A DNA stretch of 64,000 nucleotides. Source: Promethearchaeota archaeon (GTDB lineage: Archaea > Asgardarchaeota > Lokiarchaeia > Sigyniarchaeales > SOKP01). The position numbers were made by a program, and so were the translations under genes. This document shows, one piece after another, positions 7,818 through 62,741 of this stretch (its first letter is position 1; each line of letters begins with the position of its first letter). The stretch spans positions 29,733-93,732 of the forward strand of contig JALGVJ010000016.1 of NCBI GenBank assembly GCA_029838195.1, read 5' to 3'. The notes beneath the pieces are model-generated. The model was not told the origin of the DNA. It saw nothing but the letters and a program-made list of their open reading frames with translations, and searched no databases.

Positions 7818-9218
7818 CTATTCTATTTTTTTCCTTTTCAACTCATGCAATTTTTTCGCTTTCTCTGTTATTTCATTATAAATTTCCTTAGTAAGAGGAG
7901 ATTTAATCATTGCGATTAATCCAATTAATAAAAAGATTGCAGGAAAGATAAAGAATAAACTTCTTAAACCAAAAATCGTTTGTTCGGATGTTCCAAGAGG
8001 ATCAAAAATTGCCCATCCAACAGAATTAAAAACCAATGCGATGCAAAGAAAAACAGCAACATTAGTAAGTTTTGCAATGAATCCATTAATACCATAGAAG
8101 CCTGCTTCTCTTCTTATACCATTTATTAATTCATCTTGGTCAATAATTGCAGAAATATTCACATCTCTAACAAATAAGGCTCCAGCTAATCCAATTCCTA
8201 ATAAGAAAAAAAATATAAATGCAAAAAACGCTCTAGAAATAAACATGAAGGGTACAAGGTTAAAAATTAAAATGACTATTGTTGCAATGAAAGCCTTTTT
8301 AATCCCAATTTTTTTGACCACGTGCTGCCAAAAGAATATAAATATGGCAGCAGAGATAAAACCAATTGCTAAAAACAGCGAAAGTATTAACGAATCATCA
8401 ATCTTTAGTACAAAACTTCCATATAACGGTAATATGGTCGGGATCATCCCAAAAACAAACCATACAGAAAAAGTTCCAACAATATGATGACGGAATGCTT
8501 TATTTTTAAAGGTATATTTTAGAGCAGTTAAAAAGGAAGGAGCGTTTTCTGGATCTTTTGAAAATTCTTTTCTTTCTTCGATTCCAAATTTAATAAAAAT
8601 GGTTGCAGAAACACTGCATAATATAGAAATGAAAATGGCTGCAAAGATGTAATTTTGATAATATTGAGGATCATCATATTTGGGAATGAAAAAGCTTGGT
8701 AAAATAAACGCAATCATCAAGGAACAGATTTGAAAAAATTGAATGATTGTATTGGCTTTTGCCCTCTGTTCTAAATTTCTAAACATTTCTGGAAATAGGG
8801 CTGTTTGATTTACACTCCACATTGTATAAAAGAATTCCCACGTAATGATGATGATTAAAAAATATAAAAATATGATTATCTGATCTCCAATTGGAGGTGT
8901 CCATAAAAAAATGTTAATTATCAATAATGGAATAATTCCTACAATAATGTAAGGTAGCCGACGCCCCCATCTTGTGCTTGTTTTATCTGAAATCGTTCCT
9001 AAAAGAGGATCATTAATAGCATTCCAAAAACTCCAAATAATGAAACCTATTGTGATGAGATTCACGTTTAATCCAATAACGGCATAATAGAAGGTAAAAA
9101 TGAGAAAGCTAAAAAATTGAAAGAGAACAACATCTGTAAAGCCAGCAAGACTATAAAAAATAGCTTTTTTCGTCGTATACTCATTAATTTTTCTGTTTTT
9201 ATTGTTCTTAACATTCAT
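7818..9218 (-). CDS. MFS transporter, glycoside-pentoside-hexuronide (MelB-like) family
   Basis: WNAINDPLLGTISDKTSTRWGRRLPY, DQDELINGIRREAGFYG; about 12 TM segments. Confidence 0.9.
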   Translation of the reverse strand: MNVKNNKNRKINEYTTKKAIFYSLAGFTDVVLFQFFSFLIFTFYYAVIGLNVNLITIGFIIWSFWNAINDPLLGTISDKTSTRWGRRLPYIIVGIIPLLIINIFLWTPPIGDQIIIFLYFLIIIITWEFFYTMWSVNQTALFPEMFRNLEQRAKANTIIQFFQICSLMIAFILPSFFIPKYDDPQYYQNYIFAAIFISILCSVSATIFIKFGIEERKEFSKDPENAPSFLTALKYTFKNKAFRHHIVGTFSVWFVFGMIPTILPLYGSFVLKIDDSLILSLFLAIGFISAAIFIFFWQHVVKKIGIKKAFIATIVILIFNLVPFMFISRAFFAFIFFFLLGIGLAGALFVRDVNISAIIDQDELINGIRREAGFYGINGFIAKLTNVAVFLCIALVFNSVGWAIFDPLGTSEQTIFGLRSLFFIFPAIFLLIGLIAMIKSPLTKEIYNEITEKAKKLHELKRKKIE

Positions 9219-9830: not shown

Positions 9831-10243
9831 TGATTCTAAAAGAATTCATAAATAAAACCCATCAAGCCTTAAAAGATAAATTCATTTGTGCAATTTTAAT
9901 TGGTTCGAGAGCTCGTACAGATTTTAATGAAGGGAGTGATATTGACTTAATTTTAGTTGGAGCATGGGATAATGAAATTCTGTTTGATAGAATTGAAGAA
10001 ATTCAAAATAATACGCCACTTCCTCCCTTACCCATTGATTTCTTCCTATATCGAGTGGAAGAAATTAAAAAAATGATACAGCAAGGAAATCCGATGATTT
10101 TGGATGGTTTTAGGGAGGAGGGAATTTGCTTATATAATGATGTATTCTTTCAGAATGTTCAAGATCTTATTACACAAAAAATCAGTGAGGGTTTTTTGGA
10201 GAAAAAGAATGGCATTTGGAAAGTAAATACTCTTTCTAAATAA
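9761..10243 (+). CDS. Minimal nucleotidyltransferase (MNT), partner of HEPN
   Basis: LIGSRARTDFNEGSDIDL (GS-x10-DxD); overlaps the HEPN gene. Confidence 0.9.
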   Translation: MFKMEQKNIRISKRLLEKHCKELVILKEFINKTHQALKDKFICAILIGSRARTDFNEGSDIDLILVGAWDNEILFDRIEEIQNNTPLPPLPIDFFLYRVEEIKKMIQQGNPMILDGFREEGICLYNDVFFQNVQDLITQKISEGFLEKKNGIWKVNTLSK

Positions 10244-10409: not shown

Positions 10410-11942
10410 GTGAATAAAATTCAAATTAACGAGGCAGAATATCTTAATAAAGTACAAGCCTGTTGGTTGGGTAAAAATATTGGAGGAACATTAGGCGCTC
10501 CTTATGAAACAAAGAAAACCATGAATGACCTTACTTTCTATGATCCTATTCCGGAGAAACCCGCACCAAATGATGACCTTGATCTCCAACTCATATGGTT
10601 AATAATGTTAGAAGATATTGGCGTTAATCCTTCATTATATCATTTTGCTGAATATTGGAAAAAATATGCGATTGCTTATCCTTGGAATGAATATGGATTT
10701 TTACGACGTAATTTAAAGCGTGGTTTAATGCCTCCAATCGCTGGATGTTTTGAAAATTATTTTTTAGATGAGATGGGTGCCCCCATTAGAAGTGAAATAT
10801 GGGCGTGCATATCTCCCGGAGATCCTCAATTAGCAGCGGCAACGGCATGGAAAGATGCTGTACTTGATCATGCAGGAGGAGAAGGAATGCATGGAGAAAT
10901 GTTTTGGGCTGCCGTAGAAAGCGCAGCTTTCGTAATTAATGACCCTAAGCAGTTGATCGAAATAGGGTTAAATATGATTCCTCTATCCTCGGCAATTTCT
11001 AGAGTTACGCGAGAAGTTCTATGGTGCCATGAAAATGGATTGACTTGGAAAGAAACGCGGAAACGTATTATTTTATATTATGGCCATAATTCTCCTTGTC
11101 ATGCGCCTCAGAATCATGGATTTACTCTATTAGGATGGCTTTACGGTAATGATTTTGGAGATAAACTTTGTAAAGCGGTGAATTGCGGATATGATACGGA
11201 CTGCACTGCCGCAACATTAGGAGCTCTTCTTGGAATCCTCAATGGTTTAGAATATATTCCTAAAAAATGGAGCGATCCAATAGGAGAAAAGATAGTTCTG
11301 CATTTATTAACAAGAAAAGGGAACTTGAAAAACCCACCCCGCAATATTCACGAATTAACAAATCGAATTTTTAAAATAACAAAGCAATTTTTAATTAAAA
11401 ATTCTAAAACTTCAATTTTAGGAGAAAAAACTACATTACCCGAAAATTTATACTCTTTATTATTTCAAAATGAAAAAGCACATCATGTATTGCGTTCTGA
11501 TATCCATGCAGCAGTATCCCTCGTAAATGATATTGAAATCACCCTATATTATTTTGGTGAACCAGTAATAAAACCAGGGGTTGATAAAATATTAGGAATC
11601 TCTTTGAAAAAAAATGGGTTCAAATTAAAAAATAATGTTTTTCTGGAAGTACCAAATGGCTGGGAGGTTCAATTTTTAGATGATGAATTTGAACAAAAGC
11701 GTTTTATAATTCGGGCATCGGAAATCCAAAATTTTAATATCATCCATGTTTGCTTACCACAAATAAATGAGAATAAAAAGATAAAATTCGTTATCTTAGG
11801 TCCAAATGAAGCTCAAGGATATCCTAGCGGGATAAATATTCCGAGACCTTCCTTTAAAGGTTCTGATAAAGAATGGCTTGAAAAAATAGGAATTTCTAAA
11901 AAAAGATTAAAAGAAAATTCCATTAGAAAAAAAAATGATTAA
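10410..11942 (+). CDS. ADP-ribosylglycohydrolase family protein
   Basis: GKNIGGTLGAPYE, PNDDLD, MGAPIRSE, GYDTDCTAATLGALLG. Confidence 0.88.
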   Translation: MNKIQINEAEYLNKVQACWLGKNIGGTLGAPYETKKTMNDLTFYDPIPEKPAPNDDLDLQLIWLIMLEDIGVNPSLYHFAEYWKKYAIAYPWNEYGFLRRNLKRGLMPPIAGCFENYFLDEMGAPIRSEIWACISPGDPQLAAATAWKDAVLDHAGGEGMHGEMFWAAVESAAFVINDPKQLIEIGLNMIPLSSAISRVTREVLWCHENGLTWKETRKRIILYYGHNSPCHAPQNHGFTLLGWLYGNDFGDKLCKAVNCGYDTDCTAATLGALLGILNGLEYIPKKWSDPIGEKIVLHLLTRKGNLKNPPRNIHELTNRIFKITKQFLIKNSKTSILGEKTTLPENLYSLLFQNEKAHHVLRSDIHAAVSLVNDIEITLYYFGEPVIKPGVDKILGISLKKNGFKLKNNVFLEVPNGWEVQFLDDEFEQKRFIIRASEIQNFNIIHVCLPQINENKKIKFVILGPNEAQGYPSGINIPRPSFKGSDKEWLEKIGISKKRLKENSIRKKND

Positions 11943-37804: not shown

Positions 37805-38998
37805 CTATTTTTTTCCCGAGCTCCTTCGCTCAATTCCTACTTGATCTAAAATCTCTAATAAATCTACTATTTCTAACCCTCCCGCATGTTTTTCATTCGC
37901 ATCACTTAAATTCGTGCGGCAAAAAGGACAAACCGAAGATAAGACCGTGGCTCCCGTTGCTTGAGCTTCTTTAATTCGTTCTTCGGAAATTTCTATAGCC
38001 CATTCGGGATAGCCTATTTTCACGCCTCCTCCTGCTCCACAACACCACGCATGATTTCTATTTCTTTCCATTTCTACAAGTGTTAAGCCCGGAATTTTCT
38101 TGTATATCTCACGAGGTGTTTGATAAAGTCCCATGTGTCTCCCTAAATGACAAGGATCATGATAGGTTACTTTTTTATTATAGGTTGTTTTAAACTGTAA
38201 TTTATTCGCATCGAATAACTCCTTGAGTAGTTCTACCGTGTGATATACTTCAAAATCTAGGCTCACTCCAAATTTTTCGAAATCTTTTTTCATGGTCCTA
38301 TAACAACCCGCACAGCTTGTCACGACCTTTGAAGCTCCCGTCTTCCTTATTTGTTCAACATTATACACCATGAAATCTTTTACAATATCTACTTGACCCG
38401 TTCTTATCATGGGACTCGTACAACAATGCTCATCAATTAAAGTAAAATTAATACCGGCATTTTTGAGAAATCGAAGAGTGGCGTCCCTAATGGTTTTCTG
38501 ACGATAATTAGACGTGCAACCTATGAAATACACCCATTCTGCCTTCTCAGGAAGATTATAGTGCCTTTTTAAATCTTCATTCGTTGAATTGGGTTCTCCA
38601 TAAGGGTTGAATGTTTGTAATGCCCGGTCTACTAAAGCTGCTTGATTAGGTCCTGGCCCAACATGTTTGACCGCCATCTCTCTTAAAGCTTCAATCATAT
38701 CGATTATAAAATCTGCGTGAGGGGCTTGACATGAATCAGCACATGCTCCACAAGTAGTGCAAGCAAAAATCGGGTGCTTTATATCCTCCGTCCAATCTAA
38801 ATCTCCGTTAATCAGCCCTCTAATTAGGCGAATTCGACCTGAAGCCCAATAGGACTCGAATAAAAAAGTTTCCCCAGAGGGACATGATGGTGCAAAACCT
38901 TTGTAACTGTATTTGCATGTCGAGCATTTTAAACAATGCTTAAACGCGAGTTCCAGAACTTCCTTTCCCTTAATATCTTCTTTAATTTCGATTCCCAT
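37805..38998 (-). CDS. HdrD/GlcF-like Fe-S oxidoreductase (2x[4Fe-4S] plus two CCG domains)
   Basis: CLKCSTC, CTTCGACADSC, FIGC, HCC, TSCAGC, YHDPCHLGR, WCCGAGGG, VCPFC. Confidence 0.9.
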   Translation of the reverse strand: MGIEIKEDIKGKEVLELAFKHCLKCSTCKYSYKGFAPSCPSGETFLFESYWASGRIRLIRGLINGDLDWTEDIKHPIFACTTCGACADSCQAPHADFIIDMIEALREMAVKHVGPGPNQAALVDRALQTFNPYGEPNSTNEDLKRHYNLPEKAEWVYFIGCTSNYRQKTIRDATLRFLKNAGINFTLIDEHCCTSPMIRTGQVDIVKDFMVYNVEQIRKTGASKVVTSCAGCYRTMKKDFEKFGVSLDFEVYHTVELLKELFDANKLQFKTTYNKKVTYHDPCHLGRHMGLYQTPREIYKKIPGLTLVEMERNRNHAWCCGAGGGVKIGYPEWAIEISEERIKEAQATGATVLSSVCPFCRTNLSDANEKHAGGLEIVDLLEILDQVGIERRSSGKK

Positions 38999-44384: not shown

Positions 44385-45644
44385 TCATGGAAAAATCCCT
44401 CTTAATCGTATGGCCCTGGAAATTCTGTCAATTGCAATCATGTAGGCGGCAATTCGTAAAGGAATATGTTTTTCTTCCGCAAGTGAATATACATGTTCGA
44501 AAGCTTCTAAAAGAATGCTTTTCAATTCGCTATAAATTCTCTCTAATTTCCAAAAATATGCGTGAATATCTTGAATGTATTCAAAATATGAAACAATGAC
44601 TCCTCCAGCATTTGCTAAAATATCGGGAATCACGACAATTCCTTTCTCATTTAAAATCTCATCTGCTTCAGGAGTCGTGGGACCATTTGCTCCTTCCAAG
44701 ATGATCTTGCAATCAATATCCCTTGCGATGCTTGCCGTTATTTGATTTTGCGTGGCCGCCGGAACTAATATGTCGCATTTTATTTTAAATAATTGCTTAT
44801 TGGGAATGGATGTGGCACCATTCTCCGCATAATCTTTTAATAAATGATTTTGTGTTTTCCATTTTAATAAATCATCTACATTCAAGCCATTTTCAGAGTA
44901 TACCGTTCCTTCCTTTTCTTGGATGGCAAGAATTTTGCAGCCGTAATCGTGAAGTTTCTTAGCAATAATGCTTCCTACCTTGCCAAACCCTTGAATTACT
45001 ACGGACATGGCTTTCAAATCAAGGTTTTTTTTTTCGCAAAATGCCTTCAAAACATAAAACATCCCTGTTCCCGTAGCATCTCTGCGCCCTACAGATCCTC
45101 CAATTTCTATGGGTTTACCCGTAACAACGCCAGGAATGGTTCTCCCTTTTTGCATTGAATAGACATCCATTATCCAAGCCATTATTTGACTGTCCGTGTT
45201 CATATCAGGAGCCGGGATGTCAATATCCGGGCCAATAACATTAATGATTTCCGCTGTGAATCTTCTCGTCAACCTTTCTAATTCTCCTTTTGATAGTTTT
45301 TCTGGGTTCACGCAAACACCCCCCTTGCCCCCCCCAAAAGGTAAATTGACTAGGCTACATTTTAAGGTCATCCAAAAAGCAAGAGCTTTGACCTCATCAA
45401 GATTTACATCAGGAGCAAATCGTATTCCTCCTTTTGCTGGCCCTCTAACTGTAGAATGATGAACTCTATACCCCTCAAAAATTTGAAGAGATCCATCATC
45501 CATTAAAACGGGGATCGAAACCATTAATGCACGTTCTACTCTTTTCAGATACGTGGCAATGTTAGCTTCTAAATTCATGTATTTGGCAACGATATCTATT
45601 AATTTTTTTACATTTTCATAAGGATTTGATGCATTATTTTTCAT
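44385..45644 (-). CDS. gdhA: Glutamate dehydrogenase (Glu/Leu/Phe/Val family)
   Basis: RGPAKGGIRF, MTLKC, PFGGGKGG, DIPAPD, VTGKP, QGFGKVG, EGANGP, PDILANAGGV. Confidence 0.95.
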   Translation of the reverse strand: MKNNASNPYENVKKLIDIVAKYMNLEANIATYLKRVERALMVSIPVLMDDGSLQIFEGYRVHHSTVRGPAKGGIRFAPDVNLDEVKALAFWMTLKCSLVNLPFGGGKGGVCVNPEKLSKGELERLTRRFTAEIINVIGPDIDIPAPDMNTDSQIMAWIMDVYSMQKGRTIPGVVTGKPIEIGGSVGRRDATGTGMFYVLKAFCEKKNLDLKAMSVVIQGFGKVGSIIAKKLHDYGCKILAIQEKEGTVYSENGLNVDDLLKWKTQNHLLKDYAENGATSIPNKQLFKIKCDILVPAATQNQITASIARDIDCKIILEGANGPTTPEADEILNEKGIVVIPDILANAGGVIVSYFEYIQDIHAYFWKLERIYSELKSILLEAFEHVYSLAEEKHIPLRIAAYMIAIDRISRAIRLRGIFP

Positions 45645-45944
45645 TTTTTTTTTCTCATGTTTTTAATTTTGTTTCTGTATTAATATTGAAAAATGAAGAA
45701 GTTAACAATTGAAAAAAGGTAAATATTTTTAAATCTTTTTCTGTTCAGAAAAGTCAATCTTTTTCGCATCATTTTCAAACGAAAATTGATTATTCTTCGA
45801 ATTAATTAACATTTTTTTATTCACTAATAATATTATGGTGAAAATTATTAAAAAAATACATCTAATATAATCAATCTATATTTTATTACTTTTATCGCAT
45901 GAGGACAATCTTTTTGAATTCTTGTCATTTTGGTAATTTGAACA

Positions 45945-46055
45945 ATGATTATTTGTACATCTTGTGGTCAAATTTTAAAGAAAAAATCTGCTGGATACGC
46001 GTTTTGTCCTTCTTGCAAGAAAATCACCTATTTCATGCAATACCTTCCTAAATGA
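45945..46055 (+). CDS. Zinc-ribbon microprotein (36 aa; 37 aa with terminal Sec if the TGA is recoded)
   Basis: MIICTSCGQILKKKSAGYAFCPSCKKITYFMQYLPK then TGA TAA TAG; CxxC-x13-CxxC; absent from the ORF track. Confidence 0.7.
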   Translation: MIICTSCGQILKKKSAGYAFCPSCKKITYFMQYLPK

Positions 46056-46076
46056 TAATAGACATGTGAAATTAGA

Positions 46077-46167
46077 TTAAGGTGGATTCGAAATTCCGAA
46101 TGAAATGCGCGTGAAAACCGTAGATGAGCATCGACGACCTTGCGAGGGGTTAAAAATTCCACCTTAA
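46077..46167 (+). ncRNA. SECIS-like structured RNA element (core 46100-46147)
   Basis: AUGAA / 8-bp stem AUGCGCGU:AUGAGCAU (one G.A, one G.U) / loop GAAAACCGUAG / CGAC / GA / CCUUGCGAGG, enclosed by a 10-bp outer stem UUAAGGUGGA:UCCACCUUAA; same layout as the vhuU element. Confidence 0.6.
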
Positions 46168-46281
46168 ATTACTCATTTTATCTCGTTTTCTTTTTTTAAT
46201 ACTTATATTCCTGTTTTTAGATTAAAAGGTACTTTTCAATTAATGAAAAATTATTATACGTGATAATAAATTCAATAACTC

Positions 46282-47439
46282 ATGAGCATATTTAAAGAAG
46301 ATATCGAAGAAGCTAAAGAGCGATTATCTGCGTGGTGGGATCATGAACTCATTGATCGTCCTTGCATTATTTATTTTCATCCCAAAACAGGCGTTCCCTT
46401 TCATGGAATTTATGACATCTGGTATCTATCAAAAAAATGGGACGATATTCAGGGCTGTTTAGAGGATTTTGAAAAAAAATCAAAATCCATCTATTTCGGA
46501 GCAGAGACCATTCCTTGGTTTTGGCCGAATTATGGCCCGGGAATCATAGCGTCTGTCTTGGGTGTAGAACCTAATTATCAAGAACAAACTCAGACGGTTT
46601 GGTTTAGTCGTCCCACGCCGGTAAATGAAATCATTTCGCACCTGGAAAGCCAGAAATTGAATAAAAATAATCCCTGGTATGCCCGCTTAATTAATATAAC
46701 AGAACATGCGGCAAAAAGAGCTAAAAAAGATTATTCTGTGGCACTGACGGATCTAGGTGGAGTCATAGATATTTTATCCTCATTTTTAGGACCAACCAAT
46801 ATCATTCTTACCATGAAACGTTCTCCCGGAATAATTGACACGTGTCGAGCTATCATCTTGGAGAAGTTACTAAAAGTTTATGACGAGTTACAAGACATTA
46901 TTGAAAGGTACGGGGATGGTTGTAATAGTTGGATTCCTATTTGGTGTCCAAAGCGCTATTATCCCATCCAATCTGATTTTTCTGCCATGCTTTCTCCTAA
47001 ATTATTTAAACGATTCGTGTTACCAGATATCAAGGAGCAAGCAGAACACATGGATCATGCCATTTATCACTTAGATGGTCCCGGACAGCTCGTCCATTTA
47101 GATGATTTATTAAATGAGCCTTCCATAACGGCAATACAATGGGTGCCCGGAGCGGGAGAGGCGCCTTCTTCTGATGAAAAATGGATGCCGATTTATAAAA
47201 AAATACAGAAGGCGGGGAAAAGCGTGATTATTGATAATCCAGGCGAAACCCCGGCAGCAGCTACTTACTTGTATGACGTATTAGATCCAAAATATCTAAT
47301 AATGCCTCTTATATTTCTCACGGAAATGCAAGCAGCCTATTATCTTCCTGAATTTGTAGGAGGGAATGGGGCTAAAGGAGATTTTAAGCAATTTAAAAAA
47401 GAGTTTAGAAAACGTCAGAAAGAAAAACAAGGGATTTAG
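46282..47439 (+). CDS. Uroporphyrinogen decarboxylase/MtaA-like TIM-barrel protein
   Basis: ERLSAWW...DRP, NYGPG, TDLGG, QSDFSAMLSPKLFKRFVLP, YHLDGPG, IQWVPGAG. Confidence 0.8.
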   Translation: MSIFKEDIEEAKERLSAWWDHELIDRPCIIYFHPKTGVPFHGIYDIWYLSKKWDDIQGCLEDFEKKSKSIYFGAETIPWFWPNYGPGIIASVLGVEPNYQEQTQTVWFSRPTPVNEIISHLESQKLNKNNPWYARLINITEHAAKRAKKDYSVALTDLGGVIDILSSFLGPTNIILTMKRSPGIIDTCRAIILEKLLKVYDELQDIIERYGDGCNSWIPIWCPKRYYPIQSDFSAMLSPKLFKRFVLPDIKEQAEHMDHAIYHLDGPGQLVHLDDLLNEPSITAIQWVPGAGEAPSSDEKWMPIYKKIQKAGKSVIIDNPGETPAAATYLYDVLDPKYLIMPLIFLTEMQAAYYLPEFVGGNGAKGDFKQFKKEFRKRQKEKQGI

Positions 47440-62535: not shown

Positions 62536-62603
62536 GTTGGTTATCCTGCGCAAGGCAGTCCCATTCAATCTCTTTTTTTATTGAATGTTCATCCTAAACC
62601 AAC
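62536..62603 (-). promoter_or_regulatory. Eukaryote-like SECIS element of vhuU, overlapping the stop codon
   Basis: GUUGGUU-UAGG-AUGAA-CAUUCAAU-AAAAAAAGAG-AUUGAAUG-GGAC-UG-CCUUGCGCAGG-AU-AACCAAC: AUGA/GA core, perfect 8-bp stem, A-rich loop, 7-bp lower stem. Confidence 0.8.
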
Positions 62604-62741
62604 GTTTAACTTGCGAGAGTAAATCTCTTTACCATCTTCATCAACCACGGTGATGTGAGCAGCACACGATAGTCAGCAGTCAAAACAACGAACGACCATT
62701 TCTAAGAGATTTACTACTCCTTCCGGGACCTCTTCACTCAT
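62589..62741 (-). CDS. vhuU: Selenocysteine-containing [NiFeSe]-hydrogenase small peptide VhuU (50 aa, Sec23)
   Basis: MSEEVPEGVVNLLEMVVRCFDC-U-LSCAAHITVVDEDGKEIYSRKLNVGLG; in-frame TGA at 62673-62675 sits in the L2 Ni-binding motif (D-x-[C/U]-x-x-C-x-x-H); the upstream large subunit lacks this motif. Confidence 0.92.

Follow-up and report, generated by a model that had tools for sequence, protein, structure and literature searches.

Organization of the locus

We analyzed a 64,000-nucleotide stretch of contig JALGVJ010000016.1 from a Promethearchaeota archaeon (hereafter the window, whose numbering is used for all positions given without a contig name). Its forward strand carries, between a glutamate dehydrogenase (GDH) gene and an ORF of 385 aa (46282-47439), a micro-ORF followed by a SECIS-like RNA element. 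The micro-ORF, as given in the list of open reading frames, has 36 sense codons (45945-46052) and encodes a CxxC-x13-CxxC arrangement with a 12-residue tail ending in FMQYLPK. Codon 37 is a TGA (46053-46055), which a comparison with TGT-bearing homologues (see below) marks as the putative codon of a selenocysteine (Sec) in last position; it is followed by TAA (codon 38, the proposed true stop) and by an in-frame TAG (46056-46061).

The RNA element occupies positions 46077-46167 of the same strand. The AUGA, a K-turn quartet that makes up the 5' half of the core, is located at 46100-46103 and starts 44 nt past the micro-ORF TGA. Next comes a main (upper) stem of nine positions (46104-46112 with 46124-46132), seven of which pair: the base position, A46104/C46132, is unpaired and 46109/46127 is a G.A mismatch, while one of the pairs is G.U. 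The stem carries an apical loop of 11 nt (46113-46123), GAAAACCGUAG, with an A-rich start and an AG end, and is followed by GA (46133-46134), the 3' half of the core, and then by C. RNAfold predicted a 3' mini-hairpin, GACCUU / GCGA / GGGGUU (46136-46151), which contains CCUUGCGAGG. An outer (lower) helix of 10 bp, recognizable in the sequence and in the RNAfold structure, is formed by UUAAGGUGGA (46077-46086) with UCCACCUUAA (46158-46167). The 5' side of the internal loop (46087-46099, 13 nt) presents a predicted 5-bp hairpin (RNAfold) that overlaps the beginning of the AUGA. An oligo-T tract at 46186-46197 may be an archaeal terminator of the unit formed by the microgene and the SECIS.

A first-pass annotation of this DNA had described a SECIS-like layout with an 8-bp stem at 46100-46147, enclosed by a 10-bp outer stem and resembling the SECIS of the vhuU gene in the same window. 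The layout was confirmed, and so was the complementarity of both outer arms, but the main stem is not a run of 8 bp, given its G.A mismatch, its G.U pair and its unpaired base position. The vhuU element (AUGA at 62592, negative strand; mini-hairpin at 62545-62558) indeed follows the same plan, with a loop of 10 nt. Folding of the positive strand with RNAfold reproduced the outer helix, the weakened main stem and the mini-hairpin; the folding energy of 46077-46167 was only modestly below that of shuffled sequences (z = -1.87), which is weak support by itself, and the opposite strand folded no better than chance.

The SECIS of Lokiarchaea (lokiSECIS) has been described as an AUGA followed by a stem of 9 bp and then by a GA, the loop having 11 nt, an A-rich start and a last G that usually comes after an A (PMC4989117), and the model of Huang for the type I eSECIS-like stem allows 7-15 bp with up to two mismatches (PMC11227280). 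The element at 46077-46167 agrees with this description in every sequence feature: AUGA directly 5' of the main stem, 7/9 stem positions paired with two mismatches tolerated, an 11-nt loop with A-rich first five nucleotides and an AG end, GA (rarely AA in such elements) directly 3' of the stem, and a 3'-UTR position close behind a UGA-containing ORF, which is also its position in the 51 Sec-form relatives described below. The earlier assignment to the eukaryote-like (K-turn type) Lokiarchaeal SECIS is thus upheld. No Rfam family reached its gathering score in the 64-kb window, and the search around the site gave no SECIS family at E <= 10, no C/D-box and no other match beyond noise. This result was expected since, according to Mariotti et al., Lokiarchaeal elements are missed by standard SECIS models (PMC4989117).

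The micro-ORF family

Small ORFs homologous to the micro-ORF were found in a peptide search of related genomes with E values from 2e-11 to 1e-5. Eleven members aligned without gaps over 37 columns, with M1, C4, C7, G8, G17, Y18, C21, C24, F30, K36 and position 37 invariant, and the family consensus was MIIC..CG........GY.YCP.CKK..YF....FK. The same start ATG is present in all the relatives; a longer ORF running through the in-frame TGAs at 45900, 45915 and 45939 was therefore ruled out. With the family profile, hits at E <= 1e-5 were obtained in 85 of the 134 genomes that belong to the same taxonomic family and in none of the 26 from the class's other families; the 266 genomes assigned to other Asgard families gave none at E <= 1e-6. 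A DNA-level search with 45900-46200 against 60 relatives yielded chance matches only; the homology can be recognized from protein and structure and not from DNA.

AlphaFold2, run on the 11-row alignment, predicted a three-stranded zinc ribbon (pLDDT 88.6) with residues 33-37 as an unstructured tail. Foldseek against the PDB retrieved weak matches only (E ~1), mostly bacterial ribosomal zinc-ribbon chains, and searches of Pfam and NCBIfam gave generic zinc-ribbon hits, all below cut-off. The exact peptides of the micro-ORF and of three relatives were absent from a collection of 15 billion proteins, showing that such genes are missed by gene callers.

Two further observations concern zinc-ribbon ORFs. 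One family member (genome G159, locus L053; contig 10, 35055-35168, negative strand) has, besides the terminal TGA, another one in the place of zinc ligand Cys24, and contains a two-residue insertion. On contig 45 of the genome studied here there are two paralogous zinc-ribbon ORFs of 33 codons (8454-8558 and 11698-11796, positive strand) with the pattern MVSCNECG...YYCPICD..TYFS; they end in TGA and lack both a SECIS and the FK-Sec tail, and their TGAs are probably ordinary stops.

Sec/Cys alternation and presence of the SECIS

Codon 37 was read in 56 members from 55 genomes. It was TGA in 51 of them and TGT, i.e., Cys, in the other five (G011, G017, G077, G102 and G111), so that an in-frame UGA aligns with a Cys of homologues, as in selenoprotein genes. 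Codon 38 was TAA or TAG in all 56 members. As a background, TAA or TAG directly follows the TGA stop in only 25 of the 697 TGA-ended ORFs of at least 200 aa in this genome (3.6%); the second stop is thus under selection, as would be expected of a TGA read as a sense codon.

With covariance model R2 (see below), a SECIS was detected between the micro-ORF and the gene after it in all 51 TGA forms (38-71 bits) and in none of the five Cys forms. Genera g6 and g11 each include both Sec and Cys forms, which implies that the switch happened at least twice. The distance from the ATG to the AUGA was 141-163 nt in all the members except that of G068 (about 250 nt); with a single exception among the 51 Sec-form members, the SECIS was placed about 33-55 nt past the UGA.

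These comparative data bear on several earlier proposals. The first-pass annotation considered the element apparently orphan and suggested that it might recode the TGA of the upstream zinc-ribbon microgene, act as a decoy, regulatory SECIS or selenium-responsive switch, or be left over from a lost gene. Recoding is the option supported by the comparison (51/51 versus 0/5). An element that always accompanies the codon-37 TGA of a conserved micro-ORF, and is missing where that codon specifies Cys, is not an orphan; the same correlation contradicts the decoy and switch proposals, and the tracking of this TGA speaks against a relic.

Conservation of the RNA structure

We aligned, without gaps, 21 orthologous elements from 21 genomes. 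All nine stem pairs changed on both sides, which bears out the conservation and covariation in relatives anticipated for a genuine SECIS. Paired cells amounted to 91.5%, versus 32-45% when the 3' partners were slid by 1-3 columns, and the observed covariation was reached in 0 of 500 shuffles. The stem was also recovered de novo by RNAalifold, which predicted 8 pairs, all of them with compensatory changes. The AUGA did not vary among the 21 aligned orthologues or among the 11 elements of this genome (see below); within the alignment, loop positions 3-5 (AAA) and the last loop nucleotide (G) were likewise invariant. The 3' half of the core was GA in 19 sequences and AA in two, and the C next to it was invariant.

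Beyond the core, a hairpin of 3-6 bp follows the GA-C in 45 of 45 orthologous elements, with 24 different 5' arms; the published structural model consists of the core, the upper stem and the apical loop, and does not include this 3' mini-hairpin (PMC11227280). A same-genus relative (G001) has an outer helix of 10 bp with a different sequence at an equal distance to the AUGA. Across the family, the best outer helix averaged 8.0 bp, barely exceeding the 7.1 bp of shuffled sequences, an excess too small to establish family-wide conservation.

Two covariance models were used to score the element. Model R1 was restricted to the core and built from eight elements of this genome, the one at 46077-46167 and those of VhuU being left out; eight gapless cores were taken because MAFFT misaligned both VhuU elements. 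R1 gave 22.8 bits to the element and 23.3 bits to the genuine VhuU element, but 24.2 bits to a chance site in the GDH gene, indicating that the core alone does not discriminate. The genome-wide pre-filter passed over the element.

Model R2 comprised 20 orthologous elements from other genomes and reached through the mini-hairpin region. With it, the element scored 41.9 bits, with an E value of 1.3e-6 when the window was searched with the filters switched off and of 9e-5 genome-wide. This is far from a background level, as the best non-SECIS match after it in the window had 12.1 bits. The remaining matches above 30 bits in the whole genome were the elements of HdrA-VhuD (58 and 31 bits) and VhuU (45 and 38 bits). 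The score was the second lowest among the 51 Sec-form micro-ORF elements, and no other element of the set has a main stem as weak as this one, in which two positions do not pair. The site in the GDH coding sequence (45463-45503, negative strand) presents a SECIS-like core with AUGA, a 9-position stem, a loop ending in G, and GA; it was discarded as a chance match, with 9.4 bits in R2 and no mini-hairpin.

Other SECIS elements and Sec genes of the genome

When the complete 4.5-Mb assembly was scanned for the pattern, 11 elements of the lokiSECIS plan emerged, each with a 3' mini-hairpin as judged by eye. The likeness to the vhuU SECIS, initially taken as a special mirroring, is therefore a property of all 11 elements. 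Seen in this way, the hairpins are short, rich in G+C, placed 1-5 nt past the core GA, and often have GC in the loop. The genes upstream of the elements are three HdrA-VhuD pairs, two VhuU genes and, for the rest, TGA-containing ORFs without a Pfam match; the HdrA, VhuD and VhuU genes thus occur here with TGA and the same type of SECIS.

Components of the Sec machinery were also present. A tRNA-Sec gene was located on contig 3 (36948-37040), about 800 nt from the gene for SepSecS (37832-38989; 389 bits), and a PSTK-like gene scored 154 bits, below the equivalog cut-off.

Several of the TGA-containing ORFs have relatives of their own. On contig 39 (9995-10180; L022:334-519, negative strand), a 62-codon zinc-ribbon ORF contains four in-frame TGAs, has its own lokiSECIS (AUGA at 9962) and shows the motif CPSCG...U...CKNCG...GHxNPHxUPU..C..GD.PU. 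Its homologues in eight relatives from two taxonomic families have four TGAs each (one has five), at identical positions in the six loci read out, and the ORF has the look of a further multi-Sec selenoprotein family that is not on the published lists. Upstream of the window, on contig 34 (12285-12746; L019:320-784, negative strand), an ORF of 155 codons without a Pfam match presents adjacent TGAs (...PDPGC-U-U-EKV...) and a lokiSECIS 15 nt past its stop; homologues with 2-3 in-frame TGAs were found in 26 of 30 relatives. A pair of paralogues on contig 7 (31745-32143; L017:2596-2994, positive strand) and contig 38 (L021:2637-2984), ORFs of 116 and 133 codons, have one in-frame TGA each, near-identical SECIS stems and no Pfam match; one-TGA homologues of the 133-codon ORF (contig 7) were present in 10 of 30 relatives. 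Finally, contig 19 (29986-30138; L018:333-485, negative strand) carries an ORF of 51 codons, for which a single membrane helix was predicted and which ends in ...SNS-U-PG-stop, and a perfect-stem lokiSECIS that starts 28 nt downstream. No homologue of it was found in 40 relatives, and it may be lineage-specific or spurious.

Neighbouring genes

The gene downstream of the micro-ORF was, in 11 of 30 loci (L028, L037-L042, L045, L046, L049 and L053), that of a Prx-like (AhpC/TSA) selenoprotein, PrxL, on the same strand and with the motif FFRG.WU..C; in other relatives it was an AlaX-like gene or others. Those Sec-form loci beside PrxL that were long enough (G024, G070 and G159) had two SECIS, one per gene, and Cys-form loci had a single SECIS, located after the downstream PrxL. 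The upstream neighbour in 21 of 30 loci was a divergent gene for a leucine-rich-repeat protein, a position taken by GDH in this window. The frequent adjacency suggests that the microprotein could be a partner of PrxL; the link would not be obligatory, since a search with the PrxL protein of G024 did not find PrxL in this genome.

Proposed function and alternative explanations

We propose, with a probability of roughly 0.88, that 46077-46167 is the 3'-UTR SECIS of a microgene at 45945-46058 and recodes its terminal UGA, giving a zinc-ribbon selenoprotein of 37 residues. On this comparative evidence, the last amino acid of the microprotein is very probably Sec. A short transcript, with boundaries placed by inference, would carry the 37-codon ORF and the SECIS. 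The ribosome would translate the 36 zinc-ribbon codons and arrive at the UGA (46053-46055), with the SECIS core, i.e., the AUGA/GA K-turn, the 9-position helix and the A-rich 11-nt loop, 44 nt downstream. The SECIS would recruit the presumed archaeal Sec-specific elongation factor with Sec-tRNASec, Sec would be inserted as residue 37, and termination would occur at the next codon, UAA. Translation would thereby yield 37 residues, folded as a Zn(Cys)4 ribbon, its zinc binding being predicted, with a flexible tail ...K-Sec-COOH. The alternation of Sec and Cys beside an invariant Lys suggests a C-terminal tail that is redox-active or metal-binding; our guess is a redox or metal-handling tail that possibly works with the Prx-like selenoprotein.

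An unlikely alternative is that the family is genuine and this particular copy is decaying, its SECIS weakened to the point that the TGA terminates and a 36-residue protein without Sec is made. The two non-pairs in the 9-position stem and an R2 score that is low for the family would fit such a decay. Against it, a mismatch at the base position is common in genuine elements (5 of the 10 other lokiSECIS of the genome), and the column of the internal mismatch is also unpaired in three other orthologues; the SECIS behind the conserved ORF with two Sec codons on contig 34 (12266) has a mismatch there as well. The two non-pairs are accordingly within the range of genuine elements. Every invariant nucleotide of the SECIS and every invariant residue of the protein is retained here, the TGA-TAA is intact, and the score itself was lowered because the element had been left out of the training of the model.

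The RNA could otherwise act on its own, for instance by binding L7Ae, by diverting the Sec machinery as a decoy or by sensing selenium as a switch, next to a micro-ORF with an ordinary TGA stop. The AUGA/GA motif could form a K-turn, the structure bound by L7Ae-type proteins, and no known selenoprotein family adjoins the element. We consider this very improbable given the presence of the element with 51 of 51 TGA forms and 0 of 5 Cys forms, the TAA or TAG after the TGA in every member, and the lack of any Rfam match, C/D-box or other, at the site. Service to another gene, either a lost neighbour or, from a 5'-UTR position, the 385-aa gene downstream, finds a precedent in one documented archaeal 5'-UTR SECIS (as cited in PMC4989117), but here it is scarcely credible: the ORF at 46282-47439 has no in-frame TGA, the downstream genes vary among relatives, and PrxL, where it comes next, has a SECIS of its own. 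Recoding of the terminal UGA of the micro-ORF is thus the reading that we retain.

Comparison with known systems

The Asgard selenoprotein families published so far are SelD, VhuU/FrhA, HdrA, VhuD/FrhD, PrxL, AhpF-N-like and DsbA-like (PMC4989117, PMC11227280, PMC13188914), and a large Asgard survey of 2024 relied on homology to known families. Full-text literature searches gave no report of the micro-ORF family, and in the literature on the subject we found no archaeal description of Sec as the very last residue. It is probable, in our estimation, that the micro-ORF represents an unpublished selenoprotein family restricted to one taxonomic family of Lokiarchaeia, with 37 residues, a C-terminal Sec and a close eukaryote-like SECIS, and that this genome holds in addition at least three further families of lokiSECIS-linked TGA-containing ORFs without a Pfam match, namely the four-Sec zinc ribbon, the 155-aa adjacent-Sec protein and the 116-133-aa one-Sec protein. 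To our knowledge, a size of 37 residues would rank among the smallest of selenoproteins. If this is correct, the Asgard selenoproteome substantially exceeds the seven published families, and an apparent orphan RNA becomes an explained gene. With gene and SECIS in about 220 nt, the locus would be a very compact natural test case for the eukaryote-like SECIS of Asgard archaea, suited to questions on the minimal distance between UGA and SECIS, the decoding of a UGA placed just before a stop and the contribution of the conserved 3' mini-hairpin.

Among bacteria, KCU-star and SaoC are precedents for a C-terminal Sec. The micro-ORF product resembles these small proteins in having the putative Sec at or near the C-terminus, aligned with Cys in homologues; it differs in being archaeal and in its zinc-ribbon body and eukaryote-like 3'-UTR SECIS, with no sequence relation detected. 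OS_HP3, a dual CXXC motif small selenoprotein (NF041197), is likewise small and has two CxxC motifs and one Sec; that family is bacterial with the Sec motif RxU, and its HMM matched none of the 11 micro-ORF members at E <= 1. The element does not match the euryarchaeal SECIS (GAA_A bulge type) or the Rfam SECIS models.

The closest likeness is with the lokiSECIS, or Asgard type I eSECIS-like elements, of VhuU, HdrA-VhuD and PrxL (PMC4989117, PMC11227280), with which the element shares the core, the stem, the loop and the 3'-UTR site. Within the window, the VhuU gene (62589-62741, negative strand) is also very small (50 codons) and precedes a SECIS built in the same way; however, its peptide is unrelated, its Sec is internal, at the Ni-ligand motif, the gene belongs to a hydrogenase operon, and its UGA is about 80 nt from the AUGA, as compared with 44 nt in the micro-ORF. 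Unlike the published lokiSECIS, the element at 46077-46167 would serve an unlisted gene family in which the recoded UGA is the last sense codon.
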